A stretch of 64,000 bases of DNA from a virus: the IMG/VR virus record IMGVR_UViG_3300045988_172855; one strand, 5' to 3'. Positions 6,657 through 63,044 of this stretch are shown in pieces. Under the pieces are notes generated by a model. The model saw only the letters and a list, made by a program, of their open reading frames with translations. It was not told the origin of the DNA and did no database searches. Numbering within the stretch: position 1 is the first letter of the stretch; every line of letters begins with the position of its first letter. Position numbers and translations under genes: made by a program.

Positions 6657-8177
6657 TTAAACAAGACCTTCTTCACCGATATTCACGATACGAACAATCT
6701 TAGCAGGCTGATACAATACCGGAGTACCGTAATTCAAAATTGCAAATCTACGAGAAGGAGCTGTAATAGCAAAATCCATCTTCATAGTATCAGCAAACTG
6801 CAAATATTCGTTAATCTGATTATCATTGTAGTAAATCAATGCAGATTTTGTACCTGCAATGATACGATTGCGGTCACGAACACAATTAGCAGCAGCACCA
6901 TCCCATCCACTAGCCATTTGAGAAGCAGGAACTTCAAAGATAGGATAATATTCTGTTGTATTGTTAAGCGCAGCATCTTTCTTTGTACGATAAATTACGA
7001 AGCAAGTAGCTGCATAAGCACCACCAACACCGGCAGTAAATCCAAATTCAACTGAATCAGTTGCTGCAACAGCTTGAGCACCTCCTGAAGTAATATTCAA
7101 AGGAGCAGATTCACCGTAACGGTTCTTAGCAGTAACCAAATAACCGTAAGTACCTGCATGACGACCGAAGTTTGTCTTAGTGTCATTATTGTTTACTTTA
7201 ATAGCAGTTCCGACAACTGGAATAACCGGAGCTTTAGGTGAAGTTGCTTGTTTTCCTACAGTGATCGGTTTACGTTCATCAAAGAAACGGTCGTTTTTGA
7301 TATTGATCTTACCAAACTGAGTAGTAACATCATTTACACTCTGACCCATTGTTGCACCGGTTACAGAAGCAGCCAAACCTACAATAACACGTTTTGATTC
7401 GTGGAACAATTTAACGTAATTGTTAAATACAATCGGGTTAGAAATGATGCGATCAATATAACCGTTATACACGTTAACAACAACGTTAGCTGCATCCTGA
7501 ATCAAATTGTCATTCAAAACCTGATTCTGAGCATCAATAACAGCCGGAGAATTGAAATAATTATCAAGTAACTGTTCTGAAGTCTTACCTTCTGCAGTAC
7601 CTCCATCCATTTCGTTTACACCAAGCATGTGTTGACGGAATACGCCATCAAACTGTTCAGGGACACAAGTAGAGTCTGCATCAACCAAACGAGCATCCAA
7701 AATAGTTTGTAACAAAATAGTCTTATTCTCAACTTCTTTGGTGTACATATTCATACCACCAGCCAATCTAGCGAGCATTGCAGGATGAGTAACCTGACCT
7801 GTAACACCCATAAATTTGGTGATGATTGACTTACGTCTGTACTGAGAATCGGTTTCTTCCGGAGTTTCACCTTCAGTATTAAAGATACCAACTTCTTCAC
7901 CATACTTATACAACTGATTATACTGATGTACTGTATTGTCGATCTTATGTTTCGGCATTTCCATCAAGTAAACCAACTGATTTAAGCGGTTACCCAAGAT
8001 CTTTAATGTAGAGTCGAGTGATTCAACTTTCAGACCACCACCATTGTTGATCTGATTGTTATATTGCATACCGGTCTGAAGACCAGCTTCCATTGCTTTC
8101 AAAATGTCTTTTGCGGAAATTTCATCCAACAAGTTCGCTCCTGAAGCATCGTTAGTATTGTAATTATACAGATCCAT
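6657..8177 (-). CDS. putative major capsid protein
   Basis: 506 aa, directly after the protease- and scaffold-like genes and followed by an attenuator hairpin. The call rests on position and size. Confidence 0.6.
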   Translation of the reverse strand: MDLYNYNTNDASGANLLDEISAKDILKAMEAGLQTGMQYNNQINNGGGLKVESLDSTLKILGNRLNQLVYLMEMPKHKIDNTVHQYNQLYKYGEEVGIFNTEGETPEETDSQYRRKSIITKFMGVTGQVTHPAMLARLAGGMNMYTKEVENKTILLQTILDARLVDADSTCVPEQFDGVFRQHMLGVNEMDGGTAEGKTSEQLLDNYFNSPAVIDAQNQVLNDNLIQDAANVVVNVYNGYIDRIISNPIVFNNYVKLFHESKRVIVGLAASVTGATMGQSVNDVTTQFGKINIKNDRFFDERKPITVGKQATSPKAPVIPVVGTAIKVNNNDTKTNFGRHAGTYGYLVTAKNRYGESAPLNITSGGAQAVAATDSVEFGFTAGVGGAYAATCFVIYRTKKDAALNNTTEYYPIFEVPASQMASGWDGAAANCVRDRNRIIAGTKSALIYYNDNQINEYLQFADTMKMDFAITAPSRRFAILNYGTPVLYQPAKIVRIVNIGEEGLV

Positions 8178-8212: not shown

Positions 8213-8875
8213 TTATTTGCACAATTTAATATCGCATTTATCATACATATATTGAGCGAGTTCTTGACCAACGGTTTCAGCTTCCGGATTTGTCAAATAC
8301 GCCAACATATCACCTTCCATTGATTTCTGTAAAGTTTCAGACATCTGATCGTAAGCCTTTTCAATTGCCTTTACAACCAACGGACGTTGAGAAATAATAT
8401 TCATCTCATATTTATTATTCTCGTCTTTAGCGATCTGCATTGATTTCTGAATAGCATTTACATTTTCCAATCCAGCAGAACGGAAACTCGGCGTCTGTCC
8501 GCCAATTTTATCAATCTTATCACTCAATACATCCAAAGTTTCAGCCATCTTCTCCATAATAGGAGCAAATACGCCCATAGATTTAGCAAAGGTTTCTTCT
8601 ACAGCTTTTTTGATGCCTTCAGCATCACGATCTTCTGCAGTATCTTTTTCATCGTCCTTTACTTTTTCTTCTTTCTTAACAGCTTCTTTTTCGAGTTTAT
8701 CGATATCTTTTTCCTGCTTTGTTTCAGATTCGTGATCACCTGCAGCGGCAGCGTCTTCACTCTTCTCGATTTTGATATCGCCTTTTTCAATACTTTTTGC
8801 GATATAATCTTCAGTGAAACCCATAGCTAACATGGATTTAACTATCGCGTTGTCTTTGTAGTCTTCAAACTTCAT
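8213..8875 (-). CDS. putative scaffolding protein
   Basis: 220 aa, strongly acidic and Lys-rich helical sequence (EKEAVKKEEKVKDDEKD...), located between the protease-like and capsid genes. Confidence 0.55.
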   Translation of the reverse strand: MKFEDYKDNAIVKSMLAMGFTEDYIAKSIEKGDIKIEKSEDAAAAGDHESETKQEKDIDKLEKEAVKKEEKVKDDEKDTAEDRDAEGIKKAVEETFAKSMGVFAPIMEKMAETLDVLSDKIDKIGGQTPSFRSAGLENVNAIQKSMQIAKDENNKYEMNIISQRPLVVKAIEKAYDQMSETLQKSMEGDMLAYLTNPEAETVGQELAQYMYDKCDIKLCK

Positions 8876-8935: not shown

Positions 8936-9715
8936 TTAACGAAAATTTTGCAAGTAGTCCCATAAAATTTTCGAAGAAATGTGACCCTCCATATAACTTT
9001 TATACAATTCTTTAAAGTCGTCACTCTCTACTCCTTCTGTCGGAAATGCTTTCAAAACAAAATTTTTATCAATAGAAAGAAGATATCCATTCTTTTCCAT
9101 TTCTAAAAGAATATTAGTTTGTTTAAAACTAACGCTATCGCTTTCAGAACAATCAATATAATCCTGTTTCTGAATACCCTTAACTATATCAGCATAAGTA
9201 TTTGCATTAACAGGAGTCATTGTCATTGCTACATTTGTAATTAATGCTTTTGTAATTTTTTTCGGATTCTTTTTATCTCTTTCTAATGCCTTACCTTCAA
9301 TACTAAAACCAGGTTTACGATTTGTTCCCGATTCTTGCATTTCTAACGCTTTATCATAAAAAGCTCTAGCTTCAGGAGATTTTTTCCACAATTGACACTT
9401 GACAAAAAATTTATTGTCTTTGACTTTAGCATCTAAAGGGGCTCCTATCCAAAATCGAGACTTGTTTATCGGACTACGCGAAGTAAGATGATCTAGATTT
9501 ATCAATCCGTGTTTCAAAAAACGATCAATAATAAAACCATTTGGTTCCATTGATTCTTCTTCTGAATCTTCGGACGCATCGGAAGCCAAACCCTCAAAAA
9601 TCATTCTTTCGTACCGCTTATCGTCTCCTACTGGATAATCAAGCGGATTGAATTTAGAAGATTTTTCAAGATTGGCTTCTGTGAAAAAATTAAACTTAGC
9701 ATCTATATCAAACAT
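8936..9715 (-). CDS. putative prohead maturation protease
   Basis: 259 aa upstream of the scaffold and capsid genes. Segments GFSIEGK...NVAMTMTPVN resemble prohead protease families. Not verified by any search. Confidence 0.45.
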   Translation of the reverse strand: MFDIDAKFNFFTEANLEKSSKFNPLDYPVGDDKRYERMIFEGLASDASEDSEEESMEPNGFIIDRFLKHGLINLDHLTSRSPINKSRFWIGAPLDAKVKDNKFFVKCQLWKKSPEARAFYDKALEMQESGTNRKPGFSIEGKALERDKKNPKKITKALITNVAMTMTPVNANTYADIVKGIQKQDYIDCSESDSVSFKQTNILLEMEKNGYLLSIDKNFVLKAFPTEGVESDDFKELYKSYMEGHISSKILWDYLQNFR

Positions 9716-10565
9716 CCTTTATATGTTCCATTGTCAACGAATTTACGAAATTATCAATCAATTTATCTATTTCTCGATACTTTCTGACTTGCTTCCAATC
9801 TTCAATATCGACTTCCTTATGAATCCCCATTAATGCTCCAAATAAAGCTGCATTTGTATCCGTATCAAATCCTAAATTCACTACGTCACAAAGGTCTTCT
9901 TTTAAGGTAGAACTCTTTGTTCTCAATTTCAAATAATTATCTAAAATCAAGTTATATGTATTAATAACATCTCCTCGATTTTGATAACTATCAACCGAAA
10001 AATCGAACTTGATATTTTCTTGCGGTAAAGCTCTCAACAATTTTTCAAGTAAGCAACAATAATTACCACCAAACTTAAAACAATTAGGATTATTATGAGT
10101 GAATAAGCTAAAAAAGTTGAATAAACTCATAGTCTCTGAAGCTACGAACTCCTTTTTCGTAGATCTATAAATTGCAACAGGAAGAGCATAAAACATTGCA
10201 CCGTTTCCCATCGAATCTGTTCTCGGACAACCATTCCTCATAATAGAAGATGATGTTTGCGATCCTATATCGAATAATCCTTCTCCTGCATTGAAACCTT
10301 TATTATGATACCAATCCTTTAGATTATCTCTCATTTTATTAAAAACATCCATCATATTATTCGTCTTAATAGAAAGTGCATCTATAAGACATAACAGAAT
10401 AGATGTATCGTCAGACCAAGTGCCAATCGGTTGATTATGATATCCTCCTTTTGAAAATCCGACGCAATTAAATTTGGTCGGATTTTGAAATTCAAAAGGA
10501 ACTCCTAAAGCATCGCCAATTATATAAGCTCTGATACTATTCTTTATCTTTTCTATCGTTTTCAT
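9708..10565 (-). CDS. ADP-ribosylglycohydrolase (ARH/DraG family)
   Basis: N-terminal IIGDALGVPFEF, WSDDTS, and C-terminal GFDTDTNAALFGALMG are the hallmark ARH metal-binding motifs. Confidence 0.85.
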   Translation of the reverse strand: MKTIEKIKNSIRAYIIGDALGVPFEFQNPTKFNCVGFSKGGYHNQPIGTWSDDTSILLCLIDALSIKTNNMMDVFNKMRDNLKDWYHNKGFNAGEGLFDIGSQTSSSIMRNGCPRTDSMGNGAMFYALPVAIYRSTKKEFVASETMSLFNFFSLFTHNNPNCFKFGGNYCCLLEKLLRALPQENIKFDFSVDSYQNRGDVINTYNLILDNYLKLRTKSSTLKEDLCDVVNLGFDTDTNAALFGALMGIHKEVDIEDWKQVRKYREIDKLIDNFVNSLTMEHIKDV

Positions 10566-10710
10566 CCGTTTCCGAATTTAAGCTGTTTAAAATTAGTCTT
10601 ACAGACTCTGTTTTTAACTTCTCTACTTCTTCTTTAGAAGGTTCACTAACAACTATTGATATTGATTCTCCATCTTCTTCCCATCTAGGATGTACTTTTT
10701 TCTTTGCCAT
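10537..10710 (-). CDS. small ORF (57 aa) overlapping ARH start
   Basis: Own translation: MAKKKVHPRWEEDGESISIVV.... It starts at the first ATG downstream of promoter 10746-10777 and overlaps the ARH start by 29 nt. Just below the track size cut-off. Confidence 0.3.
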   Translation of the reverse strand: MAKKKVHPRWEEDGESISIVVSEPSKEEVEKLKTESVRLILNSLNSETDENDRKDKE

Positions 10711-10745
10711 AATTTTAATTTTTTAATTACTATTCTTTTGAATGC

Positions 10746-10777
10746 CTAAAGATACACCTTTTATTTCATTCGGACAA
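10746..10777 (-). promoter_or_regulatory. Bacteroidota-type promoter (TTG-N20-TATCTTTAG)
   Basis: The - strand reads TTGTCCGAATGAAATAAAAGGTGTATCTTTAGGCAT. Same consensus as about 17 other copies in the window. Confidence 0.6.
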
Positions 10778-10783
10778 CAATTA

Positions 10784-13300
10784 TTAAACAATTTCGACAA
10801 CAATAGAATTTGTTCCTCTTGCAAGTACTTTATACTTTAATCCAGCTTGAGCTAAATATTCACTTTCGACAATATTATCTACATTCATAACCGGATCTCC
10901 TTTCTTAGCTAACAAAGTTAAATGAAGATCTGATCCAAAATCAGTTTCATGTTTCATTCCAAACGATACAAAAGATTTATCTTCAATTACTTGACCTACT
11001 TTTGCATTAAGCCATGTACTAAGATTATCTCCATTCCCTCTAATTTCCAATCTTCTGTTTAATACCATATTTCGCTTCAGAGGATTTTGTTCAATAGCTT
11101 CTTTAATAAGACCTATTCTCGTTTTAGTACTCTCTATTTTTTCTTCTGAAAAGACCTTTGATTTTGGTGATTCTGTTAGAATATCTCTTATTGCCATATA
11201 ACCTGAACCTGTATAATTTTTTATCGCTTTACGTTGATCATCTGTCCATTTGGTCGACGTTTCTTTGGCGTCTTTTTGATATATCTCGAAAAACTTTTCT
11301 TTATCTTCAAATGAATTATTCTTATTAATATACAAATAATCTTCTTTATTGTAATTATGATAAACCAATCCATTTACAACCGGAGCATATCCTCGTGTAA
11401 TTAACATTGCGTTAATTGCTTTTTTATTTTTATCATTAGAAAGACCATATTGCTCTATTATTTCACCAAAATTATAATCATCGATAAAGCCAAATATCTT
11501 TGATTTTAAATCGGAAGTTTTAGAAGACAAATCCTTAGTAAGATATTTATCTGCATCGGATTTCATTTTCTCAACCTCTTCTTTAGCGTAAAGGTTAGAT
11601 AATTCCGATCTCTTTTCATTCCAATCATAAAATTGCTTTACTGTTTCAAAATTCTTACCTTCAGCAAAAGATAATTTCTCTTCTTTCTTTTCTGTTTTCG
11701 TAGATTGTTGTTTATTCAACTCTTCTTTAATGCGTTTCTTAAAATCAACCAACGATTCATAAGGCTTCGACTCTAATTTAAATCCAGGAGAAGTTGCTTT
11801 ATACTGATTATCGCCTTTCATTTTAATAACGACAGTCTTACCGTCTTGTTTAACATAGGTTTGAGTGATTTTCTTAAACCCAGTCATATCGCTTATTTTT
11901 TTATCAATTTCGCCGGTTATTTCTTGTTTTAACTTATCTAATTTATTATCTATAGATTCTTTCTCACTCTCTTTCTTTTTCTTAAATTCTTGAAGCTTTT
12001 CCTGAATTTTATCCAAAACATCCTGATCTAATTCGAGTTCACCTTTTTCTTGAGCTTCAAGAAGATTTTTATAAGCATCTTCTACAGTAAATTGTTTATT
12101 CGATTTATCGTCAGAATCTTGTTGCTCATTTCTTTTATTTAATTCTTCTTGAGCAACTTTCTTTAATTCGGAGTTGGCTTCAGGATCTTTTATAGCCGCT
12201 TTCAATTGTTCGTCTGTTGCAGATGTAGCTTGTTTAGCCAAAATTTCTGTAGAAGATTGTTTTGAAGTCGACTCTTCTTCATTCTTCTTTCCTCCCTTAG
12301 CTTTTGGCTTCCAACCCTTTTCAGTTTTAATATATAATTTACCGCCCCACGTCTTTTCTGTCCCAATAGGTGAACCTTTCTTCGCTTTTTCTATAATTTC
12401 CATAGATTTTGTAATCGTCTGATTATAAATTTTCCACGAATTCAATTTCGCATACTTCATCGCCTCTTTTCTATCTTCTTTCCACTTTTTAACTTCTTCT
12501 GCAGTTCCTTGAGGCTTTTCTTTATTGTAAACGTATTCCCAATCAAAAGATTTCTTATCTTTTTGAGGATATACTGTGACATCTCCGATTGTAAAAGATT
12601 GTTTCTGAACCTCTTTATTCTTCTGTGCTTTTTCTTGTCTTTTATTTTCTAAATAGGATTTGTATTCACTTTTAGTGCGATTAAAATCCATCCACTTTTC
12701 TACAAAAGAATAAAGTAACGCATATTCACTTTCTTCTATCCCTATTTGTTCCAATACTTTTAATATACCCTCTCTTTTAGGTAAATCCAATAGTTCAAAA
12801 TTATTAGACTCTTTTATAATTGTCTCATAATTTTTCTTAGACGAAAGTCTTTCGACATCAGAAATAATCTTTTTTAAATCTTCGGTTTTATAACCGTAAG
12901 CTGTGTTAATTGATATATCTGAAGAACCGTCTCCGTAAAGATTAAAATCAATGCCTAAATCAGTTTCTTTATCCTGATTCTTCTTTGTATGATTCGAAAT
13001 TCTTATATCAAAGTCGCTATTTTTCTTTTTAAATTTAAAATAAGAAGAAGCTGTTGATTTACTTTCAATATATTCATATCTTATCCCCTCATTCTCTAAC
13101 CACTTCTTAAACGACTTAGCGATTTGCTTTGGATTGACATTAGTCATTTCTATAACATCCTGCTTCTTATTGATGATTTTGGAACGACTTTCTATCTCCT
13201 TTTCTTCATAAACGTATCGAAAACCACCTTTCCCATCCGGCTCTTTTCTAATGTATTTATGAAAAATAGCTTTCTCTAAAAGATCTTTGATTTTCTCCAT
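10784..13300 (-). CDS. large virion-module protein with C-terminal ADP-ribosyltransferase (Alt/C3-like R-S-ExE) domain
   Basis: The C-terminus has KNYTGSGYMAIRDIL, NRRLEIRG, KSFVSFG (S-x-S) and VESEYL (ExE, codons 10859-10867). The track start at 13399 runs through the upstream hairpin, so ATG 13300 (MEKIKDLLEK) was used. Confidence 0.75.
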   Translation of the reverse strand: MEKIKDLLEKAIFHKYIRKEPDGKGGFRYVYEEKEIESRSKIINKKQDVIEMTNVNPKQIAKSFKKWLENEGIRYEYIESKSTASSYFKFKKKNSDFDIRISNHTKKNQDKETDLGIDFNLYGDGSSDISINTAYGYKTEDLKKIISDVERLSSKKNYETIIKESNNFELLDLPKREGILKVLEQIGIEESEYALLYSFVEKWMDFNRTKSEYKSYLENKRQEKAQKNKEVQKQSFTIGDVTVYPQKDKKSFDWEYVYNKEKPQGTAEEVKKWKEDRKEAMKYAKLNSWKIYNQTITKSMEIIEKAKKGSPIGTEKTWGGKLYIKTEKGWKPKAKGGKKNEEESTSKQSSTEILAKQATSATDEQLKAAIKDPEANSELKKVAQEELNKRNEQQDSDDKSNKQFTVEDAYKNLLEAQEKGELELDQDVLDKIQEKLQEFKKKKESEKESIDNKLDKLKQEITGEIDKKISDMTGFKKITQTYVKQDGKTVVIKMKGDNQYKATSPGFKLESKPYESLVDFKKRIKEELNKQQSTKTEKKEEKLSFAEGKNFETVKQFYDWNEKRSELSNLYAKEEVEKMKSDADKYLTKDLSSKTSDLKSKIFGFIDDYNFGEIIEQYGLSNDKNKKAINAMLITRGYAPVVNGLVYHNYNKEDYLYINKNNSFEDKEKFFEIYQKDAKETSTKWTDDQRKAIKNYTGSGYMAIRDILTESPKSKVFSEEKIESTKTRIGLIKEAIEQNPLKRNMVLNRRLEIRGNGDNLSTWLNAKVGQVIEDKSFVSFGMKHETDFGSDLHLTLLAKKGDPVMNVDNIVESEYLAQAGLKYKVLARGTNSIVVEIV

Positions 13301-13314
13301 AATAATATAAAATA

Positions 13315-13333
13315 GGAGGAGGATATCTCCTCC
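13315..13333 (-). terminator. short hairpin after Nudix-protein gene
   Basis: GGAGGA..TCCTCC 6-bp stem, followed on the - strand by TATTTTATATTATT. Confidence 0.35.
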
Positions 13334-13338
13334 ATTAA

Positions 13339-15483
13339 TTAATGTAACTGTAAACGATATTTGGTTTGTTTCAATGTAGCAAGGAAATCTTCTGTCCAAG
13401 ACTTTTCACCAACATAATCAGTATGATCATCAATTTTACCATAGAACTTCTTGGTACGATCTATGATCAAATCAATCAAACCAATAGGATCGTTGACTTC
13501 AATTTCTTCACCATTTACAGAACCGTCTTCAAATCGACCAAATTCACTTTGACCTGCTTCCATGATCTTGTCTTCGTAATCAGAAAGTTCCTCAATCAAA
13601 TCATCGAGATAAACGTGTTTGGAATTATCTAACTCTCCCCAATGTACATTTTTTGATCTTGTTTTCGCACCTTCAAGAAAATTAGCATAATCAACGAAAA
13701 CGTTATACATAGCATCTTTAGCTTTTTGAACACCATCGTCTAAAGACGGATCTCTATGAATCTCGTCGTGTATCTCGTCAATACCCCATGCTTTTTCAAT
13801 CTCCTCGTTCTTAGTTTCAATCGAAGCAATATCTAATTTACCTGAATCTTTCATTTCATCAACCAATGACTTAAACATCTCTGCTTGATCTAAATCATTA
13901 AAATTGATTAATATATTGAAACCTTGTACATCGTCTTCAACTTTCTGAGATTTTTCAATATTCTCAGTCTTCTGAAGACTATACATGCGAATATTGCCCT
14001 TAAAATCCCAAGTTTGCTCACCATTTTCTTCTGTAGACAATGTTATAGAAAATTTCCTTCCTAAGTTAGATACCTTTTGTAACGTTCCTAAGAAATCAAA
14101 TAATTTATCACCATTACCACCGTCATTATCGCTATAACCAAAACTTGCATTTCCGTATGTATATTTTTTAGGATTTTCAGTAGCATCGACAACTCTCTCT
14201 ACATACTCAACCTTTTTAAAAGTAATTGCCTTTTCGATACCATCTCCGTCAGGTTTCTTTGTCTCACCCTCAAGACTTTCCTTACAAATTGCATTCACGT
14301 CATTACAATCCATAGTTTTTTCAACCTCGTTCCATGATTCAGGTAATTCGTTTGTTGCACCAAGATCTTTTGCTCTGCGTTTCAAATAAGCAATTACATC
14401 TGATTTAGGAAGGTCTGAATTACCAACCAACTTGATTGCGTTTTTCAGATCAGAACGATTGCGAACAGGAAAACGACCGCCTACCATAGCTTTTCCTTCT
14501 TTCTCAAGTTTTGCACGCTCTTTCTCAGAAATATAAGATTTTGCTATACAAGATAATTCAGGCTTATTGACTTCTTTTTCAATTTCCTCTTTATGTTTTT
14601 TACAAAAATCTTCAAAAATCTTTTCATTGATCTCACCTCGAGCAAATGCCTTTGTTATAATCTGAATAGGTCCTTCCGGACACTCTCTACCAAGAATCTT
14701 TTTGATATTTTCTTTCATATCAAAAATAAAATCGTAGTCATCTAACTCTGTTCTAGTATCGATCCAAGTACTTCCAACTTCTTCTTCGCTATCGACAATA
14801 ATCTGTATAGGCGATTCATCGTCAACGTGACCTAAGAAATAATGAATCTCGTAATCTTTGCCTTTTGCAACACCTGCTTCAATCAAAAGATCTTCGGGGA
14901 TCTCAATACCTGTTTCTTCAAACAATTCTCTTGCGGCTGCTTCGAGAAAACTTTCTCCTGGATCAACGTGACCGCCAGGTATACACCATTGTTGTGTACT
15001 TGCTCCGTATTCACCAGCTCTTTGTAAAATCAAAAGTTTATCACCTCTAAACAACAATACATCGGCATAGCGTACTTTACCAGTCTTAGCCTTGATTATA
15101 TCATTATAAACTGATTTCGAAATATTCCCTTTCTTTAATTCGTTCTTTGCTGAATAGATGTTATAAATATCATTCAAAGTATCACTTATCTCTTTATCGG
15201 CAGATAATTTTGATAACGATTTAAAAATCTGTTCTCTTTTTCTTTGAACAATAGCAATATTTTTAGCATGTTCTTCTAAAAATTCATTATAACGTTTTTC
15301 TGCATCTACTCGCTCCTTCTCATCTAAAGTTGAAAAACTTTTAGCGATTGAACTTTTTTCAGCAAAAAGAGTTGATAAATCACTTATTTCGTTCGCAATC
15401 TCGAAAGATTTCTTCAACAAACTTCTATATTCAGCAACTTTCTCTGAATTAGATTGTAAATTAAATAATTTCTTAATATTCAT
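13339..15483 (-). CDS. 714-aa Nudix-domain protein (virion module)
   Basis: Perfect Nudix box GHVDPGESFLEAAARELFEETGI (14905-14976 also covers the Gly residue before it; fits GX5EX7REUXEEXGU). N-terminal coiled coil. The C-terminal KNVHWGELDN..LDDLIEEL..D.IMEAG is weakly Dps/ferritin-like. Confidence 0.8.
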   Translation of the reverse strand: MNIKKLFNLQSNSEKVAEYRSLLKKSFEIANEISDLSTLFAEKSSIAKSFSTLDEKERVDAEKRYNEFLEEHAKNIAIVQRKREQIFKSLSKLSADKEISDTLNDIYNIYSAKNELKKGNISKSVYNDIIKAKTGKVRYADVLLFRGDKLLILQRAGEYGASTQQWCIPGGHVDPGESFLEAAARELFEETGIEIPEDLLIEAGVAKGKDYEIHYFLGHVDDESPIQIIVDSEEEVGSTWIDTRTELDDYDFIFDMKENIKKILGRECPEGPIQIITKAFARGEINEKIFEDFCKKHKEEIEKEVNKPELSCIAKSYISEKERAKLEKEGKAMVGGRFPVRNRSDLKNAIKLVGNSDLPKSDVIAYLKRRAKDLGATNELPESWNEVEKTMDCNDVNAICKESLEGETKKPDGDGIEKAITFKKVEYVERVVDATENPKKYTYGNASFGYSDNDGGNGDKLFDFLGTLQKVSNLGRKFSITLSTEENGEQTWDFKGNIRMYSLQKTENIEKSQKVEDDVQGFNILINFNDLDQAEMFKSLVDEMKDSGKLDIASIETKNEEIEKAWGIDEIHDEIHRDPSLDDGVQKAKDAMYNVFVDYANFLEGAKTRSKNVHWGELDNSKHVYLDDLIEELSDYEDKIMEAGQSEFGRFEDGSVNGEEIEVNDPIGLIDLIIDRTKKFYGKIDDHTDYVGEKSWTEDFLATLKQTKYRLQLH

Positions 15484-15514
15484 AGCTATTCATATTTTGG
15501 CCTAAATATACGGA

Positions 15515-15961
15515 TTAATTTTTACATCTTATACTTTTAATACAGATATTGTCTGCATAAAAACATCCACCATCAATATCTATATTATAAAAAAATCTAT
15601 TTACAGTCTCCATTCGTTCAATTTGATCGATAACAACATCACCTTCTTTAGACGATAGTATTTGTCCTAATTTTAAGTCCTTTACTTGAGTATCAACTAA
15701 ATATTTCTCACCTTGTCGTTTTACAAGTATAACTTGATCTCCTGAAATACGATCTAAAACTCCTTCTCTATCTTTGTTGTGATAATAGATGTTGAACACT
15801 TTTTCATCAAATCTCGCTGTTCTTTGAAAAATACCTTTTACTTTAGAATAACCCAATGTAGACAATACAATGTCACCAACCTTGAGATCTCTGATAAATT
15901 TATCACCTTCTAATGTTCGAATCTCAATAAAACTAGAATTAAATCCACCCTTCATGTTCAT
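15515..15961 (-). CDS. free-standing Hint (intein/hedgehog-like) domain protein
   Basis: SFIEIRTLEGDKFIRDLKVGDIVL matches Hint block A. FFYNIDIDGGCFYADNICIKS matches blocks F/G. The TxxH position reads SGDQ and there is no terminal HN. Confidence 0.5.
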   Translation of the reverse strand: MNMKGGFNSSFIEIRTLEGDKFIRDLKVGDIVLSTLGYSKVKGIFQRTARFDEKVFNIYYHNKDREGVLDRISGDQVILVKRQGEKYLVDTQVKDLKLGQILSSKEGDVVIDQIERMETVNRFFYNIDIDGGCFYADNICIKSIRCKN

Positions 15962-16511
15962 GATTTGTTGTTACAATAATATCGTTATCTATAAGTAATG
16001 CATATTCAATAGGAAGATCGAGATTATAGATACGACCTTCATAAAATTGCTCCCTATTGTCCATAATCTCAAGTTTTTTTAAATCAAAACTCGTCTCCAT
16101 ACATTTTTCGACACGTTCAACATAATTGTCAATAGATTCATTTTCTTCAGCACATATCAAACATAAACAAGTTGCTTTAGCTAATACATTGTCTTCTGTT
16201 AATTGATCAAAAGTTTTCTCATCTATTATAGGTAAACAATCAGGATGAAAGTAAGTACACGTCAAAAGGTTTTGATCTTTACAACAAATCAAATGTTGAT
16301 CGTCAGATAATGTAATAAAATTAACTGAACCATTATAATCACTTGACGACAAACATCCTTTGATGTAAGTGATACTTCTATTAGGTAAATAAACTATACG
16401 AACATAATCTTCGTCTGTTACTTCGCTGATTTTGATCTTTGGAAAATTCATTTGTCCAAATTCATCTAATCTCAATACAGTTACTAATACATCTCCTCTA
16501 TATCCTGTCAT
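15939..16511 (-). CDS. Hint-like domain protein
   Basis: YRGDVLVTVLRLDEFG..KIKISEV is block A-like. TLSDDQHLI is block B-like. GRIYNLDLPIEYALLIDNDIIVTTN is F/G-like. It overlaps MuF by 4 nt and the next Hint ORF by 23 nt. Confidence 0.4.
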   Translation of the reverse strand: MTGYRGDVLVTVLRLDEFGQMNFPKIKISEVTDEDYVRIVYLPNRSITYIKGCLSSSDYNGSVNFITLSDDQHLICCKDQNLLTCTYFHPDCLPIIDEKTFDQLTEDNVLAKATCLCLICAEENESIDNYVERVEKCMETSFDLKKLEIMDNREQFYEGRIYNLDLPIEYALLIDNDIIVTTNHEHEGWI

Positions 16512-17458
16512 ACTTCAAAAGTTTTATCTCCTACATAAATCTTAACCTTACTTCTTCTTTCGATCTTTGGCTTGTAATCTTTAGGTGGTGCAAAAATCTG
16601 TCTTTCTTCATCCCACACATAACCTTTCGGTAAGTATCGTAATTGGCATCTACAAAACGGATGAATTCCTTGTAGTGTGGGTGCCCAATCTTTCGCTTTT
16701 CTTCCTATATTATCACCATTAGCTATCAAATCAACTAATTTAAACAATCTAGGTTTTGAACCTGAACCATTGGTAGTATAGAGTCTCAAACAGTGTTTGC
16801 ATGCGCCTGGAAAAACTTCCTTGTAAACTAAAGCATCTAACCCATGTTCACTCATTATCGTTTCAGCAATACCGATTTGATAAATGCCTTGCATTTCTGT
16901 CTCGACTATTCTTCCCCAATCTCTGTTCCAATCATTAAGAGAATGTCCTATATTACTTATAATTGATTGAACTGATCTTCTTTTTAAAACACCTTCTGTA
17001 ATTTCTTTCTTTATCGTTCCTAATTCAAGTTGTCTTTGTTGTTCAGTCAATAGCTTTACATCTTCTTGAGAAATTGCATTAGAAAGTATATCTCTCATTC
17101 TTTGACCCATCGTCTTGATATAAGAATACGTTCTTGTTGCTGCAGCATTATAAACAGCCTTTTCTCTCGTAGAAAGTGCTTTAAATTGGTTTCTTTCTAC
17201 AAACAATAAGAAGTCTCTATAATCAACTGATCTCAATTGAGCAGGAGTTAAAACGCCGGATAACCTACCAAAAAGAAATGATTGATAATAAGGTGGAATT
17301 TTTTTCAATTCTTTAGCCCAATCATAACCATTTCTTTTTAACAATTCCTTATCCTCAGGTTTTAATGCATCGCCACCTAATACATCAGCAACTATCCTAG
17401 CTAAACGATAATCAATGATGTCGAATAATCTTTGTATTTCTTCAGGAGTAAAAATCAT
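16508..17458 (-). CDS. head morphogenesis protein, MuF / SPP1 gp7 family
   Basis: The PGACKHC....HPFCRCQLRYLP Cys/His motif is typical of this family, and the gene sits directly after the portal region. Confidence 0.7.
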   Translation of the reverse strand: MIFTPEEIQRLFDIIDYRLARIVADVLGGDALKPEDKELLKRNGYDWAKELKKIPPYYQSFLFGRLSGVLTPAQLRSVDYRDFLLFVERNQFKALSTREKAVYNAAATRTYSYIKTMGQRMRDILSNAISQEDVKLLTEQQRQLELGTIKKEITEGVLKRRSVQSIISNIGHSLNDWNRDWGRIVETEMQGIYQIGIAETIMSEHGLDALVYKEVFPGACKHCLRLYTTNGSGSKPRLFKLVDLIANGDNIGRKAKDWAPTLQGIHPFCRCQLRYLPKGYVWDEERQIFAPPKDYKPKIERRSKVKIYVGDKTFEV

Positions 17459-17658
17459 TGTTTTGATATATTAAGCATTTCTTTTGTCAAGTCGGCCATC
17501 ATATTGTTTGTTTGAGTAGAAAAAATAACTTGCGCTAAGCCTTCATACCCACACTGAACCTTAGGATATCTTATAGGATCCTTTGTATGATATATTATAT
17601 TAGATGTTTTAGCCATCTGCTTTACATCTATACCATTTATGTGTTTTATAGGAGGCAT
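17455..17658 (-). CDS. hypothetical protein
   Basis: Track ORF with an ATG start, coupled between the portal and MuF genes. Confidence 0.5.
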   Translation of the reverse strand: MPPIKHINGIDVKQMAKTSNIIYHTKDPIRYPKVQCGYEGLAQVIFSTQTNNMMADLTKEMLNISKQ

Positions 17659-19364
17659 TACTTATACAAATTTTTTCTATAATAATCAATTGCCGGTCCC
17701 ATTATAGGATCGTTTGAAAATGACTTGTATTTGTCAAAAGGATTCTCTTCCATTTCTTCATCCATTGGAACACCTTCTTCCTCACTTTCTCCTGGAACAG
17801 AAGCTCCGTACATCTCTTGTTGTTGTTTTGTTGCCTGTGCCGTTTGATAAACCTGATTCAAAATAATGTCGTTCTCAGGATCAAACTCTCTACCTGAATA
17901 TTTCTTAAAGATATCTTGCATAGCAACCATACCCATTTCTAATTTATCTTTATCGAGTTTTACTTGAGCTTCTTCGTCTTCTACTTCAATACCCGTAAAA
18001 ACAAACTCGAAATCTTCATTTAATTCACTTACAAGATATTCAGTGATAATATTCTGCAAAAAAATCAATAATGGTTTTAAACCCTTTTCTCTACTATGTT
18101 GCAAACGTTGTTTTTGGCCATCTTGTCCAAAAATTTGAGCTTGGTCTTTAAATTGAAAACCTAACTCTGTAGGATCCATTCGATAAACAGCACAACTAAT
18201 AATAATCAAAAATTTCAACCACTCATTGAATTCCATATCTCTATTGTTCTTTTGCAGATCAATCCACTCAAGATCAATTCCGTTGATTACAGGAACCCTA
18301 TGACTATTCTGAACACCTTTCATTGTTTGTGACCAGGCTTGTCTAAACTCGTTAAGTGTAGAATTTGAAATATTTGCATTTTTTACATTGATAAATCCTT
18401 TAGGTTGTGAACCTTGACTAAAGAAGTTACCATTATATTGCATGCCCCATAAAATCCAAGTTATTATCTCAACCAAAGTTTCGAGTTCAGATGTTCCATA
18501 ACCATTTCTTCGAATATTAGACGATTTATTTCGAATACCGAAACCCAATTCCCATGGATAATATAATATAGGTTCTTTTGTTATAGGATTTTTCAAAATC
18601 AATTCATCCCACACCATACAATAACGAGGAAGATATCCTCTATAACGATAATCTTCTAACGATTCTCTTTGTCTAGGATCAACACTATCTAAAAAACGAA
18701 TCATCGAAGCGTCTACAGCTCTGAATTTATTTAACTCCCAATTACGATTTCGTACAATTTCAAATGCAAGTTGATCGAGTGTAAGACTATCGAATGTTAT
18801 CTTACGAACAAATGTTTGCAGATCATCAACGTTATCCCACTTTTCTGTCCATCCACCTCGTTCTAAAAACTTAACAATATTTTCTATCTTTTTCTTATCT
18901 TCTTCGCTTAATTCTTCTTCATCTCGATCTTTAAAAAGACCTTTCTTTCTACGAATCGTAAATCCTTCTTTTTGTTCATCTTCTGAGAAGTGAAGAAAAT
19001 TTTGAATTTGCTCAATACGAGTATTGACGATAGCACGAATAATCCATAAGTCACCCATCTTTCGAAGAGTTTCGAAAGACAAAATCCCCCTAGAATCTTT
19101 AAAACCCTTTCCATTACCTGATAAATCGTTAGGATCAAAGAATACAGAGGTGATCTTACCTGAATTTGGATTCAATTCACCTAAATATAAATTCGCTTTC
19201 ATCAACTCATTAGGATCATTTGAATTTAATGACGCTTGTAGTTTGCTTTGAAATGCATAAGGAATTGCTTTCTGCAACTTATTGAGATCGTCTAAAGAGA
19301 GATCAGTCAGGTTTTCAAAACCTGACTGTTGACTCTTATAATTAGTTTTTCTTTTTCTTCCCAT
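17658..19364 (-). CDS. putative portal protein
   Basis: 568 aa, immediately upstream of MuF, with an acidic C-terminus. The call rests on position and size. Confidence 0.6.
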   Translation of the reverse strand: MGRKRKTNYKSQQSGFENLTDLSLDDLNKLQKAIPYAFQSKLQASLNSNDPNELMKANLYLGELNPNSGKITSVFFDPNDLSGNGKGFKDSRGILSFETLRKMGDLWIIRAIVNTRIEQIQNFLHFSEDEQKEGFTIRRKKGLFKDRDEEELSEEDKKKIENIVKFLERGGWTEKWDNVDDLQTFVRKITFDSLTLDQLAFEIVRNRNWELNKFRAVDASMIRFLDSVDPRQRESLEDYRYRGYLPRYCMVWDELILKNPITKEPILYYPWELGFGIRNKSSNIRRNGYGTSELETLVEIITWILWGMQYNGNFFSQGSQPKGFINVKNANISNSTLNEFRQAWSQTMKGVQNSHRVPVINGIDLEWIDLQKNNRDMEFNEWLKFLIIISCAVYRMDPTELGFQFKDQAQIFGQDGQKQRLQHSREKGLKPLLIFLQNIITEYLVSELNEDFEFVFTGIEVEDEEAQVKLDKDKLEMGMVAMQDIFKKYSGREFDPENDIILNQVYQTAQATKQQQEMYGASVPGESEEEGVPMDEEMEENPFDKYKSFSNDPIMGPAIDYYRKNLYK

Positions 19365-19383: not shown

Positions 19384-20868
19384 TTATACACCTGCTTGTG
19401 TTAAAGTAACTGTAATAGTTTTACCTCCTTCACTTGCAGCAACCTTCGCTTGTCCTGTTCTTTGAGAACCTGTGTTATTTGCAGCAATTACAGAATATTC
19501 AGAATCTCCTTTAGAAAAACCTTCTCCTGTAACAGTTGTAGTATAATTCACAGCAGAAGCTGGACCACTAATTTTACCATTTGCTTTCTTTTGTTTCTTA
19601 CTTGAAACGCTAAAAATTTTCGTTTCACCTGCTGCGATAAATGAAAGTGAATCAGGATCTACATCTAAAGTATATTCATAAGTTACAACAGCAGCAGCTT
19701 GTGTAAGAGTAATTTCAGCAGTCTTTCCACCTTCAACAGCAGAGATAGTCACCTTACCTGTTCTTTGTGATTCAGCAGTATTTTCAGCCGCTACAACTGT
19801 TGTATCATTACTACCTTTCGTAAATCCTGCTCCTGAAACAGTAGTCGTGTAACCTACATTAACAGGAGAACCTGAATCGTTACCATTCAATTTTTTCTGT
19901 TTTACAGAAACAACATTAAACGATTTAGATTCACCTGCTGCAGCGAATGAAATATTTGTAGGAGTAGGAAGTAAGGAGTATTCATACGTAATAACTGATG
20001 CAGCTTGTGTAAGATTAACTGTCGCACTCTTACCACCTTCATCCATAGTAATCGTGATTTCCCCAGTTCTCTGTGTATTACCTGGATTTTCTTCTGCTTT
20101 GATATTAAATCCATCTGAAATAGCACTATAAGAAAATCCTACACCAGCAACTTCAATATGTGTTCCAATATTCGTAGGATTTCCGGAAGGTTTTCCGTTT
20201 ATTATAACTTGTTTTGTTGATGTAACAGTAATCTTTTTTGTTTCACCTGTATTTACAAACGAAAGTGAATTAGGATCTATTGTTAAGTTATATGTATAAC
20301 TTACTGTAGAAGCTTCTTGTGTAAGATTGATAGTAATCTTCTTATTACTTTCATGTTGTGTTACAGTTAAAACACCGTTTCTTACAGAAGTAGTCGGATT
20401 TTCAGCAATAGTTACTGTACCACCTTTACTTACTGTGTAAGGAGATTTTGTTTCAAAGTCAACTTCCAACGGTGTTTGTACACCTGTCGGCTTTCCGTTT
20501 ACATAAAGTTGCTTATAGGAAGTAACAACAGCCTCTATGCTGTCACCTTCCTTGGGAAACGCCATTGTCTTATCTTGCGGAATAAGAAAATAACGCATCT
20601 CTTCAACTATATCAACGAGAATCTGCTCCTTTCCTTCATATTCTTCAGGATAAGCAATGAGACGTAATATATTATTCATTGCCCATTCTTTAAATTGACC
20701 TATATTATAGGTGAGACCTGCTCGAATAACTATTCCGAGACTTTCAAAGTAATCCACATCTCCCACTGTATTCTCTGTAACAAATACATTCAACTGACTG
20801 TCGATACCGTCAGTAATAACAGTCAGTTGATGGAGATTATCTTTTGTTGTAAATAATAATCTATACAT
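19384..20868 (-). CDS. virion-module protein with 3-4 tandem BACON/Ig-like repeats
   Basis: Repeats of about 101 aa each end ..N(T/P)..QRTG.(V/I)T....GGK....(L/V)TQA(A/G). The N-terminal ~100 aa is paralogous to 20874..21455. Confidence 0.5.
   Translation of the reverse strand: MYRLLFTTKDNLHQLTVITDGIDSQLNVFVTENTVGDVDYFESLGIVIRAGLTYNIGQFKEWAMNNILRLIAYPEEYEGKEQILVDIVEEMRYFLIPQDKTMAFPKEGDSIEAVVTSYKQLYVNGKPTGVQTPLEVDFETKSPYTVSKGGTVTIAENPTTSVRNGVLTVTQHESNKKITINLTQEASTVSYTYNLTIDPNSLSFVNTGETKKITVTSTKQVIINGKPSGNPTNIGTHIEVAGVGFSYSAISDGFNIKAEENPGNTQRTGEITITMDEGGKSATVNLTQAASVITYEYSLLPTPTNISFAAAGESKSFNVVSVKQKKLNGNDSGSPVNVGYTTTVSGAGFTKGSNDTTVVAAENTAESQRTGKVTISAVEGGKTAEITLTQAAAVVTYEYTLDVDPDSLSFIAAGETKIFSVSSKKQKKANGKISGPASAVNYTTTVTGEGFSKGDSEYSVIAANNTGSQRTGQAKVAASEGGKTITVTLTQAGV
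19387..20304 (-). repeat. three full ~303-nt tandem coding repeats (a degenerate fourth copy extends to ~20556)
   Basis: The protein repeats span aa 189-289, 291-391 and 393-494, as aligned by eye. Confidence 0.6.
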
Positions 20869-21484: not shown

Positions 21485-22396
21485 TTATTTTTTGTTAAAT
21501 CCAATCAATTTACTCCGATCTCTAGGATCATCGCTTCCGATTTTTTGACCACTTGCAACACGTTGTTCATGTTCTTTTCGAAGTTGTTCGCCTATTTTGC
21601 GAGCTTCCTCGATTTCTCTAGCGAATTTATTTTTCTTTGGTTGTTTTTCTGAATATGTATATTTTTTATCACCGAATTCCTTAAGAAGCTCATAATATTT
21701 TTCATTCCCCTTTTTATTGACATCTCCGGAATTTTTAAGATATCCCTCCTTAGCAAGTTTAGGAGAAGTTCCTCTTTTCATTCTTGCGGCATATAAATCT
21801 CTGAAAAGACGATATCTTTCGAATTTATCTTTATCATGAGTAACAGTAACTAATTCACCGTCCTCATCCAACTCTTCTTTTTCAGACTCCTTCTTACCTT
21901 CATCTTTCTTCGTCGAAGAACCTTTGGCTTTTAATCTCCAACCTTTTCCGGTTTTAACGTAAAGTTTGCCGCCATAAGTCTTTTCTGTTCCGATAGGAAG
22001 AGCTTTTGCTTTTTCAATTGCATCTTCGTCAGCACAATTGATACCAGCGATTCCTTTCAATATATTCAAAGAAGTCTCTTTAAACTTACGACACATTTTA
22101 TCGTTAATAGATTTGAAGATACCATCAGGTATTTCTACTTCTTCAGTTTGATTTTCTCTATAATAAACAGTTCTTTTGACTAAATCGTTACCAACAATAA
22201 TAGCAGGTGTTAATGATGCAAAATCGGCTGCAGCACACGATTTCTCAAATTCGTCAATTTCATTCTTTTCAGACTTTTCTAAGAGATCCTTACAAAAGGC
22301 ATTTACAGTTTCTGCAGAAAATACCTCGTAATTATGCTTTTCAACAAAAGCATTGAATTCATCTTGCGTATATTCCAATGGAGTATTTTTAATCAT
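21485..22396 (-). CDS. hypothetical Lys/Glu-rich protein sharing a ~30-aa motif with the ART protein
   Basis: EKAKALPIGTEKTYGGKLYVKTGKGWRLKAKG (the core from PIG to KAKG maps to 21920-21997), compared with EKAKKGSPIGTEKTWGGKLYIKTEKGWKPKAKG in 10784..13300. Confidence 0.5.
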   Translation of the reverse strand: MIKNTPLEYTQDEFNAFVEKHNYEVFSAETVNAFCKDLLEKSEKNEIDEFEKSCAAADFASLTPAIIVGNDLVKRTVYYRENQTEEVEIPDGIFKSINDKMCRKFKETSLNILKGIAGINCADEDAIEKAKALPIGTEKTYGGKLYVKTGKGWRLKAKGSSTKKDEGKKESEKEELDEDGELVTVTHDKDKFERYRLFRDLYAARMKRGTSPKLAKEGYLKNSGDVNKKGNEKYYELLKEFGDKKYTYSEKQPKKNKFAREIEEARKIGEQLRKEHEQRVASGQKIGSDDPRDRSKLIGFNKK

Positions 22397-62700: not shown

Positions 62701-63044
62701 TCTGTATGACTTTTAACAAACTCTCTTAACTCTGTATCACTGCAGATAACTCTGAAAAAATCTTCAATACTTTTCATACCCTCCTCGTCTCTCAATTTAG
62801 AAGTAATTCTTCTAACTGTTCCTATCGAAATACCTTCACAACGAGCAAGATCTGTAATTGCAGCTTTTAATTGCATTGTCGTATATGTTCCAAGTGACGT
62901 CACTTGCGTTATACCAAATCTTTTTTCCATATACTCTTTAACTCGAGGGCGTTGTTGGCCTTCAAAGTCTGTATCAATATCAGGCATCGATCCGAGTTGT
63001 CTTATTTCTTGAACTTCTTTTTTAAGACTTTTAATCGTTATCAT
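59760..63044 (-). CDS. dnaE: DNA polymerase III alpha (DnaE-type), C-terminal 4/5, intein-containing
   Basis: It starts just before the catalytic PDIDTDF. It also has GTVVYP and FLKEDILG, the RK-[intein]-CMGKK motif (E. coli RRAMGKKK), FNFSHAIAY, and a C-terminal OB-like region. Confidence 0.85.
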   Translation of the reverse strand: MITIKSLKKEVQEIRQLGSMPDIDTDFEGQQRPRVKEYMEKRFGITQVTSLGTYTTMQLKAAITDLARCEGISIGTVRRITSKLRDEEGMKSIEDFFRVICSDTELREFVKSHTELINDVMVCLNSPKSASIHACGTVVYPDEKSSAQWVPVRESNGLVVTEWEGAEIEEAGFLKEDILGIAQLDKLADILKLIEKNRGIKLDLYNDVPLDDPIVFEYIEKGYLGDVFHFGAKGLSSYCVQMKPHSLDEMGLCAALYRPGPIENNYHNEYILRKRGESEIEYPIGAEDILRPHLGLLITQEDIMRLCQHLAGFDLETTDSVRKCIWGEELFWTPDGAVKIKNIKPFTSVTTYNEKECCFKWNKVYRRVYKKEKECIKLNMQGDNHFTCTPDHKLLTEVGWLEAKDCVGHYVYKDLSRRFGTLSKSKEELYLMIALLTEGSIGTIGSCNFVNKDESELSEFKRCYKEFVREEPKEYYNQYTGCTSLKIKDSVVTDLGLEFVKSDEKRLPDYIFSLNEECQLFVLGKLIDFDGYVASKKGGLLIGYSSKSKELIDQINILFSCLGVLTTTNSRSFAEYPEKYYDIGISSIEDALKIKAMLEPYSTKIKERFNFKLEDFDLDSYSQYKIPFEIWQPIIKNLIDHSGYNCNELLGKNILNYGINRPFDLTYRRAEKILKRCGRSKYLENILKREFCFLKVESYDRVGKLPVYDFTMTSDRSPYAFVGGILAHNCMGKKITSKLKSFGDKFVKGYVERFGVEEKYAQDLWKQMEEFGKYAFNFSHAIAYSRNGYNCIWLKAHYPIEFWSVTFSHAKIEDYPFYINEIQKLGNITIKSVDINKSDINIVSDVKTSSMYWALNSVKQCGDKAQEFIHNEREKHGEFFSLDEFIDRCVVKGSPVNKSVIENLIYSGAFDKLENITAPHERLRLIESYRENKRVKILEDKDLLTNIIKARKEKNDWWWTLQQKKLSGFASFDYKRLIEEYHSDDAFSDAEYFDVSELKYWDGNDRSKCAIIGGFVIDIIERKSKKGLFATIVLESNYEFINVIVFPDLFAEYADFLRESKNNLLLVDGYIQFDKWRQEYVLQTNLNTSFTVLS
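60858..62075 (-). mobile_element. 406-aa intein with LAGLIDADG homing endonuclease, inserted in the DnaE RRAMGKK motif
   Basis: Starts CIWGEELFWTPDG (Cys1 codon 62075-62073). Block B is TCTPDH. Two LAGLIDADG motifs: LMIALLTEGSIG and VLGKLIDFDGY. Ends VYDF...FVGGILAHN (Asn codon 60860-60858), with a +1 Cys. Confidence 0.8.

Follow-up and report, generated by a model that had tools for sequence, protein, structure and literature searches.

The stretch of DNA analysed here, a 64,000-nt window of the IMG/VR virus record IMGVR_UViG_3300045988_172855, belongs to an uncultured phage of ~105 kb from the human gut. Between the genes for the portal protein (17658–19364) and the prohead protease (8936–9715) it carries eight tightly packed minus-strand open reading frames (ORFs), which probably represent an accessory region of the late head operon. 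According to this reading, an ADP-ribosyltransferase (ART) would be packaged in the head as an effector, an ADP-ribosylhydrolase (ARH) would be made late as its eraser or immunity protein, a Nudix protein would be independent of these two, and a small protein of 148 amino acids (aa) would be a former intein that has been retained. An earlier inspection of the sequence (hereafter the original prediction) had already recognized the position of these genes in the head operon. Its count of six is too low, however, because ORFs of 67 and 57 aa were overlooked.

A survey of 86 loci (80 IMG/VR loci collected via the MuF family plus six others, annotated by tblastn) revealed the common gene order portal, 67-aa ORF, MuF-like gene, (190-aa ORF), 148-aa ORF, Nudix/Dps-like fusion, protease, scaffold, and capsid. 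The gap between the Nudix and protease genes is a variable slot, which is empty (131–260 bp), contains one N-terminal module alone (~1.2 kb), or is occupied by a polyvalent-type ART gene, a small ORF, and the ARH gene (2.8–4.7 kb). Of the 81 loci that span the interval between Nudix and protease, 22 have both ART and ARH, 59 have neither, and none has only one of them. The island of the original prediction, whose conservation such a survey was meant to gauge, hence falls into layers. The MuF-like protein, the small proteins of 148 and 190 aa, and the Nudix/Dps-like fusion form a core found throughout the clade, whereas ART and ARH are a linked optional cassette in the variable slot. A third layer consists of mobile elements in the relatives, namely mini-inteins in MuF and a TnpB insertion.

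The gene for the putative effector (10784–13300) encodes 838 aa. A database gene call (P0001) has the same length, is 100% identical, and starts at position 13300; the 871-aa ORF obtained by extension to a TTG codon is thus an artefact. The ART domain was missed in a Pfam scan of the full-length protein owing to a filter artefact. When the last 199 aa are searched alone, they match PF03496 (ADPrib_exo_Tox) with 39.4 bits against a cut-off of 23.4 (E 5.4e-10; aa 676–825, positions 10826–11275). A profile of ten diverse ART homologs matches VIP2 (9vej, E 2.6e-6), the Listeria protein Lmo0066 (8za7_B, E 1.3e-4), and also C2-I. In these comparisons, R749, S779, and E812-S-E814 align with the catalytic YRW, STS, and EKE of VIP2, and the R/S/ExE residues are invariant in 10 ART domains that share 31–74% identity, as well as across ART domains of just 31–48% identity. 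Such profiles were required, as single-sequence phmmer searches of the PDB with the 838-aa protein or its ART domain gave no match; a tblastn search of 50,697 phage records with the 838-aa protein did not yield a match either.

Judged by its sequence, the 838-aa protein is a modular protein of the polyvalent type. A constant C-terminal part of ~555 aa is common to its homologs and contains, besides the ART, a motif of 30 aa, a K/E-rich region, and a small repeated domain. In the window protein, an N-terminal module (N-module; aa 1 to ~300, positions 12401–13300) precedes the 30-aa motif (aa 307–336, positions 12293–12382), the K/E-rich middle, and the ART. The N-termini of the relatives are exchangeable: they consist of the ~300-aa module of the window type, of PBECR1 (PF18809), of MuF_C (PF18819), or of an extra internal ART, or such a module is missing altogether (555-aa forms). 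Profile searches of Pfam, NCBIfam, and the PDB with the N-module gave no match; in phages without the ART, this module is found as a separate gene of 343 aa. Polyvalent proteins are virion-delivered proteins with multiple effectors, and PBECR and MuF_C modules are known as fusions to MuF and portal proteins (Iyer et al., 2017; PMC5512222). The combination of at least two effector domains with domain shuffling, which is characteristic of polyvalent proteins, is seen in the relatives as PBECR1 plus ART, MuF_C plus ART, and ART plus ART. Further similarities are the length and modularity of the window protein, its location among head genes, and shuffling between close relatives. Differences from the described polyvalent proteins are the lack of a fusion to MuF, which has a 316-aa gene of its own, the presence of a single recognisable effector domain alongside the N-module, and the ARH gene that follows; no mention of an ADP-ribosylglycohydrolase was found in the 2017 paper.

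The gene position and the MuF/portal-type modules suggest that the ART is loaded into the head, and by analogy the ART is probably a packaged effector. The 30-aa motif, KKGxPIGTEKT(W/Y)GGKLY(I/V)KTxKGW(K/R)xK, is a candidate for a common binding or head-targeting tag. In a search of the window with a hidden Markov model (HMM) of this motif, only the polyvalent protein and a 303-aa ORF upstream of the portal gene (21485–22396, minus strand), which carries the same PIGTEKTYGGKLYVKTGKGW motif, were found, both with 51 bits. At 72 related loci the homolog of this ORF has the motif, too, and in some relatives (L007, L016) it is inserted in the Nudix protein. A capsid-targeting sequence was not identified in the ART protein of the window. 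The ADP-ribosyltransferase Alt of phage T4 is packaged in the capsid. Like Alt, the window protein is an R-S-E class ART of a large tailed phage and would plausibly be delivered with the DNA, although no sequence match between the two was obtained. T4 is not known to have a partner ARH.

The second enzyme of the cassette, an ARH of 285 aa (9708–10565), matches the Pfam family ADP_ribosyl_GH (PF03747) with 98.4 bits against a threshold of 26.2 (E 7.8e-28). Its best matches in the PDB are Lmo0067 (8za7_A, E 9e-18), Tri1 (6dre, E 1.2e-11), and DraG (2woe), and the metal-site motifs GDALG, S51-D-D-T, and D-T-D-T are intact in the alignment to Lmo0067. According to these similarities, the protein is an ADP-ribosyl(arginine) hydrolase of the DraG/Tri1 class. 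It is not an equivalog of Tri1 or DraG, as the best NCBIfam match, Tri1 (E 1.7e-16), reaches 60 bits against a cut-off of 490, and DraG reaches 38.7 against 337. ART and ARH thereby match chains B and A, respectively, of one solved Listeria complex, 8ZA7 (Lmo0066/Lmo0067). In Listeria, lmo0066 occupies the toxin position of a type VII secretion system (T7SS) locus (PMC5417603); beyond this context, nothing on the function of Lmo0066 and Lmo0067 was found in the literature.

The homology of both enzymes to toxin/immunity pairs makes it at least as likely that the ARH is a late-made neutraliser as that it is a co-injected eraser. Tre1–Tri1 of Serratia (6DRE), Lmo0066–Lmo0067 (8ZA7), and DraT–DraG are such pairs, and the ART and ARH of the window are homologous to both partners. 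The gene layout is that of a toxin/immunity locus, too: the ART occupies the C-terminus of a modular protein for delivery, the hydrolase gene lies shortly downstream, and the two genes are strictly linked and co-inherited. Differences are the vehicle, which would be a phage capsid instead of a type VI secretion system (T6SS) or a T7SS, the intervening 57-aa ORF, and the large distance of the ARH from the equivalog cut-off. Another difference concerns locus L003 from a phage that otherwise is 97–100% identical to the window. Here the polyvalent gene is broken into ORFs of 681 and 384 aa (12037–13191 of L003), and the 384-aa ORF carries a different ART domain with 34% identity. The adjacent ARH has stayed constant despite this swap and is 100% identical to that of the window, which suggests catalytic rather than partner-specific protection. 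ARH-class domains (ARG) are rare in phages, and ART–ARG toxin–antitoxin pairs occur in Aeromonas phages (Iyer et al., 2022; PMC9503650).

The Nudix domain belongs to a 714-aa protein (13339–15483) and spans aa 138–242 (positions 14758–15072; Pfam NUDIX, E 3.3e-18). The Nudix box GX5EX7REUXEEXGU is perfect (aa 170–193, with G171; positions 14905–14976). The C-terminus of the protein contains DUF5856 (aa ~594–713, positions 13345–13704; E 3.3e-6) and is 38% identical to the 'putative DpsA' of the crAss001 type. In addition, PHROG 15528, a 'portal protein' family that includes a Nudix segment, matches the protein with an E value of 2.3e-10. The Nudix fusion is encoded at all 81 loci that span the region, including the 59 without ART and ARH. 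The nearest relatives in culture are phages of Bacteroides thetaiotaomicron of the DAC19 type. In DAC19, which is distantly related (capsid protein 34% identical), a Nudix gene (DAC19_206) also lies between MuF (DAC19_201) and protease, and neither ART nor ARH was found in DAC19. Thus, the Nudix protein is independent of the ART/ARH pair. Its family matches are generic and point to no particular substrate: the 22 weak Nudix matches in NCBIfam are spread over MutT, RppH, NudE, NadM-Nudix, and NudC and all remain far below the cut-offs, the nearest families also include Ap4A hydrolase, and the matches in the PDB are equally generic. Searched alone against the phage records, the Nudix domain retrieved only one unannotated relative, MT835500. 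A location between MuF and the prohead protease is shared with other head-module Nudix proteins such as those similar to T4 NudE, and it has been taken as evidence of packaging (Iyer et al., 2022; PMC9503650). The window protein differs from these by its fusion to the Dps-like DUF5856, by variable inserts, and by the small share of NudE among the weak NCBIfam matches (one of the 22).

The domain calls of the original prediction are therefore upheld for all three enzymes. The R-S-ExE ART at the C-terminus and the Nudix and ADP-ribosylglycohydrolase domains each score above their profile thresholds, with the catalytic residues of the ART in register, the binuclear-metal ligands of the ARH conserved, and the Nudix box complete. 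Their union into one set fared less well: ART and ARH are linked, but the Nudix protein, present at 59 loci without them, is no part of a co-evolving set, and its proposed role as a co-acting cleaner of ADP-ribose or NAD caps receives no support from any subfamily-specific match.

The first gene of the core, at 16508–17458, encodes a 316-aa protein that is probably MuF-like. Phage_Mu_F is the most common sub-threshold family among its relatives (six of 32, best E 3.6e-4). An AlphaFold2 (AF2) model (pLDDT 82) retrieved a 'Phage head morphogenesis domain' (E 3.7e-4) and, with weaker scores, a portal fusion and a 'MuF-like minor capsid protein' from BFVD by Foldseek, with low TM-scores of 0.2–0.28. 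The model found no match among PDB structures, nor did a single-sequence phmmer search of the PDB. These sub-threshold and structural matches, together with the place directly after the portal gene, make the assignment probable. The protein displays the motifs C220-x2-C223 and H266-P-F-C269-R-C271, and the allele of the window is free of inteins. The situation is different in sister phages, where F268|C269 is the insertion site of an intein. About a fifth of the MuF relatives listed have 450–490 aa instead of 316 and carry Pfam annotations as PT-HINT, Hint_2, or Intein_splicing. These long forms contain a mini-intein of 140–173 aa exactly within the invariant motif, HPF|C...N|CRC. Two types of intein exist in MuF: locus L005 has a type-1 intein and lacks a free-standing 148-aa copy, and L007 and L083 have a type-2 intein plus a free-standing 148-aa gene. 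All 18 in-MuF inteins have retained Cys1, the block-B TxxH, and the terminal Asn.

Other mobile elements were observed as well. In MT835500 (L001), an inserted TnpB/OrfB_IS605 gene (13734–14945; Pfam E 2.1e-24) separates the 67-aa ORF from MuF; hence, the head module tolerates insertions of mobile elements. Elsewhere in the window, DNA polymerase III alpha is split across two overlapping minus-strand ORFs, 63031–63978 and 59760–63044, which contain positions 9–98 and 100–260, respectively, of Pfam DNA_pol3_alpha. The 1094-aa part has a LAGLIDADG_3 match (aa 522–579) between the finger domain and HHH_6. This segment probably is an intein with a homing endonuclease, in which case the genome would host inteins outside the head module, too.

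Sequence comparison identifies the free-standing 148-aa protein ('HintC', 15515–15961) as a Hint-fold protein derived from a MuF mini-intein. It is 40% identical over its whole length to the type-1 MuF intein of P0160 (BLASTP E 8e-26), and the joint profile of its family matches the gp41-1 intein (6qaz, E 9.5e-10) and a bacterial intein-like (BIL) domain (E 6.6e-6). Like gp41-1 and other mini-inteins, it has the Hint fold, and its nearest relatives are the class-1 mini-inteins at the most conserved MuF motif. In contrast to mini-inteins, BIL domains, and PT-HINT domains, however, it is free-standing and has lost the splicing residues, and yet it is under purifying selection. Gly replaces Cys1, SGDQ replaces the block-B TGNH, and KS-I replaces (S/H)N-C, with loss of the terminal Asn and of the +1 Cys. 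Likewise, Cys1 (replaced by Gly or Ile) and the block-B His are missing from all eight free-standing copies examined. Without the N-terminal nucleophile, the block-B His, and the terminal Asn, neither splicing nor cleavage of the BIL/PT-HINT type is expected. The gene is found at 84 loci with a preserved length of 138–157 aa, and its ratio of nonsynonymous to synonymous substitutions (dN/dS) of 0.087 resembles those of MuF (0.083) and capsid (0.067); it thus is not debris. In a neighbour-joining tree, the free-standing copies appear in two places, one clade being sister to the type-1 inteins and the copies of L001 and L084 being nested among these. This topology hints at two independent origins, although the tree is weak, as the sequences are short and it has no support values. 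No specific literature was found on inteins in MuF or on free-standing phage Hint genes.

The adjacent 190-aa ORF ('HintB', 15939–16511) is a real conserved gene (73 loci, 185–219 aa, dN/dS 0.091). It is possibly related to Hint/intein domains; the similarities to inteins detected in the searches are faint, though recurrent. An exhaustive search retrieved a small orphan family (185–202 aa) and one spurious repeat protein, and a word-indexed search gave only three close homologs. Comparison with both intein types by hhalign reached probabilities of 3–7%. The best profile match in the PDB is the KlbA intein (E 0.006, weak), one of nine family members matches Pfam Intein_splicing at 0.077 (weak), and inteins account for six of the 16 top Foldseek matches, all with E>3 and based on a poor AF2 model (pLDDT 48). 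A fusion of the 190-aa and 148-aa products by frameshifting was considered and is excluded, because elsewhere the two ORFs lie 2 nt apart and do not overlap.

For this part of the island, the results depart from the original prediction in several respects. The Hint-like nature of the 148-aa ORF is borne out by the full-length intein homology and the gp41-1 profile match, whereas that of the 190-aa ORF is not confirmed by sequence, profile, or fold comparison. The suggested effector role of both does not apply at least to the 148-aa ORF, which derives from a MuF mini-intein and is not an effector domain. The call of a MuF/SPP1-gp7-type protein can be kept as a remote assignment, with the relatives' sub-threshold matches, the BFVD folds, and synteny in its favour. 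One might argue instead that the two small ORFs are decaying, functionless debris of excised or duplicated inteins, given that no splicing residue is left in the 148-aa ORF, whose end may be a vestige of a C-extein (IRC versus CRC), and that no family is detectable for the 190-aa ORF. This is highly improbable, since dN/dS values of ~0.09, similar to those of MuF and the capsid protein, apply to both ORFs, and since their lengths (138–157 and 185–219 aa) are kept over 84 and 73 loci, respectively, down to identities of 23–40%.

In the scenario favoured here, the ART protein would be made late, be incorporated into the head via its MuF/portal neighbourhood, be injected with the DNA, and ADP-ribosylate host proteins as the next infection begins. 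The ARH, also a late product of this operon, would neutralise or reverse the ART inside the phage-producing cell, in the manner of Tri1 and Tre1, and the outcome would be a pulse of ADP-ribosylation that is 'on early, off late'. The Nudix protein would act apart from this pair on a nucleotide-diphosphate substrate, and the 148-aa Hint protein would be an ex-intein that no longer splices and is kept as a functional protein. The original prediction instead assumed that ART, ARH, and Nudix are one NAD-centred set of writer, eraser, and cleaner, which is co-packaged, co-injected, and active early. All three genes are indeed part of one tightly packed late operon from portal to protease, a published survey predicts head packaging of ART and Nudix proteins and reports fusions of Nudix to MuF, portal, and protease (PMC9503650), a PHROG 'portal' family includes a Nudix segment, and the failure of the ARH to co-vary with the ART domain in L003 would befit a general eraser. 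However, the occurrence of the Nudix protein at 59 loci and in DAC19 without ART or ARH is difficult to reconcile with a common set, and none of the Nudix families matched (MutT, RppH, Ap4A hydrolase, NudE, NadM-Nudix) is specific. Moreover, an eraser injected together with the writer would abolish the signal if both had the same targets, the nearest characterised relatives of the ARH are immunity or antitoxin proteins, and the ARH lacks the 30-aa motif common to the polyvalent protein and the 303-aa ORF. Joint injection of all three proteins is thus not very likely; it is possible for the ARH and not supported for the Nudix protein.

Alternatively, only MuF might be packaged, and the slot upstream of the protease might be a 'moron' hot-spot in which ART and ARH form an intracellular, toxin–antitoxin-like module for superinfection exclusion, addiction, or late host manipulation. 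This would agree with a cassette that is optional and recombines freely, with the resemblance of ART and ARH to bacterial toxin/immunity pairs, and with the ART–ARG toxin–antitoxin pairs reported from Aeromonas phages (PMC9503650). We nevertheless consider it unlikely. The ART forms the C-terminus of a long modular protein whose alternative modules, PBECR1 and MuF_C, typically are fused to MuF or portal, and the cassette lies within the head operon, with which it is coupled in translation. Classic type II toxins, by comparison, are small stand-alone proteins. A further proposal combines the self-limiting pulse of arginine ADP-ribosylation by ART and ARH with a history of the small genes behind MuF. 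These would be domesticated inteins that left the HPF|CRC site, possibly twice independently, lost all splicing chemistry, were long retained as separate head-module proteins, and were exapted for virion assembly or cargo loading, perhaps by binding to the MuF motif that they formerly spliced; we hold this to be possible though doubtful.

The reading of the locus as a late region with a packaged ART and a late-made ARH has weaknesses of its own. Packaging is argued from gene position and from analogy, and the MuF assignment is remote, as the window protein has no match above the curated thresholds of Pfam, PHROG, or NCBIfam. In the window copy of the polyvalent protein, the ART is the only recognisable effector domain. 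That the ART is of the arginine type is inferred solely from the ExE motif and the DraG/Tri1-class partner. The perfect co-occurrence of ART and ARH is less telling than the raw counts imply: by parsimony on protease and capsid trees, the distribution of 22, 59, and 0 loci needs a minimum of two presence/absence changes, and with only about two independent events its weight is small. Finally, the domain swap in L003 argues against a tightly co-evolving inhibitor; an ARH that fits the role of a general catalytic eraser could equally be co-packaged.

The flanking genes place the block in the head operon. Upstream, the portal gene encodes 568 aa (Pfam Phage_portal, E 1.9e-17; PHROG 12, E 1.4e-34); downstream, the prohead maturation protease (PHROG 1028, E 4.8e-37) is followed by the genes for the scaffold (8213–8875) and the major capsid protein (6657–8177; PHROG 752, E 2.5e-49), all on the minus strand like nearly all coding sequences of the window, whose G+C content is 29–36%. 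Adjacent ORFs in the block overlap or are spaced by 31–73 nt, and the stop codon of the ARH gene overlaps the ATG start codon of the protease gene by 8 nt (GATGTTTGA). The two shortest ORFs have no family match. The 67-aa ORF between portal and MuF (17455–17658) is conserved in position, has tblastn matches at 85 related loci (49–100% identity), and shows a dN/dS of 0.18. The 57-aa ORF between ART and ARH (10537–10710) overlaps the ARH start by 29 nt. It keeps its position even in relatives whose neighbouring polyvalent protein is only 47% identical, and the diverged relatives L003, L004, L005, and L007 have ORFs of 49–57 aa in the same place; these ORFs have in common an RW(N/E)...S(I/V) segment and, at the C-terminus, the segment (N/D)ERK(D/N)K. 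Within the 38 nt that separate the stop of the Nudix gene from the start of the polyvalent gene lies a terminator-like GC hairpin followed by a T-run on the minus strand (13315–13333; GGAGGAGATATCCTCCTCC). It is situated where the conserved core meets the variable cassette; the signal is weak, with 12 such sites in 17 kb against 5.7 +/- 2.7 expected. In a promoter scan, sigma-70 sites were no more common than in shuffled sequence, and such a scan is ill-suited to a host of the Bacteroidota type. Megablast of the whole region against the 50,697 phage records gave no match.

The host of the phage probably is a member of the Bacteroidota, as judged only from a distant similarity of the capsid protein to those of Bacteroides and Chryseobacterium phages and from a BACON domain encoded next to the portal gene. 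This domain (E 1.7e-15) occurs together with three tandem fn3-like repeats in a 494-aa protein (19384–20868, minus strand) directly upstream of the portal, which suggests a Bacteroidota-associated phage and possibly a function in decoration or adhesion. The replication module contains an NAD-dependent DNA ligase (49546–51486, minus strand) with adenylation, OB, and BRCT domains; nearby are genes for RecA, an SbcCD-like pair, and UvrD-like and SNF2-like helicases. No genes for NAD salvage, Macro, or NADAR proteins were seen among the window ORFs scanned.

Head-packaged ART, Nudix, and polyvalent proteins were predicted previously (Iyer et al., 2017, PMC5512222; Iyer et al., 2022, PMC9503650), and according to the latter study, ART genes frequently neighbour the portal gene or are joined to MuF, and Nudix domains occur in fusions with MuF, portal, and the capsid protease. 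The general idea is thus already known, and the verdict of the original prediction that this is not a described system was too strong. What appears new is the ARH tied to a polyvalent ART inside the head operon, the hypervariable slot upstream of the protease, and the conserved ex-intein gene or genes. Even if packaging should not be confirmed, the region would be a well-defined hot-spot of accessory genes, albeit an ordinary one. The clade is common in human-gut metagenomes, with protein clusters of up to hundreds of sequences and many contigs of 100–108 kb. Its sister phages with or without ART/ARH, or with different N-modules on the same carrier, offer natural, nearly isogenic contrasts for studying a virion-associated ART. 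The dead-intein genes, which adjoin a gene with a live intein in sister phages, are a clean system for the loss, movement, and domestication of inteins. Finally, the link between ARH and ART in the head operon, together with the solved complex of their homologs, provides a concrete model of how a phage may produce a toxic ART in bulk late in infection without poisoning itself.

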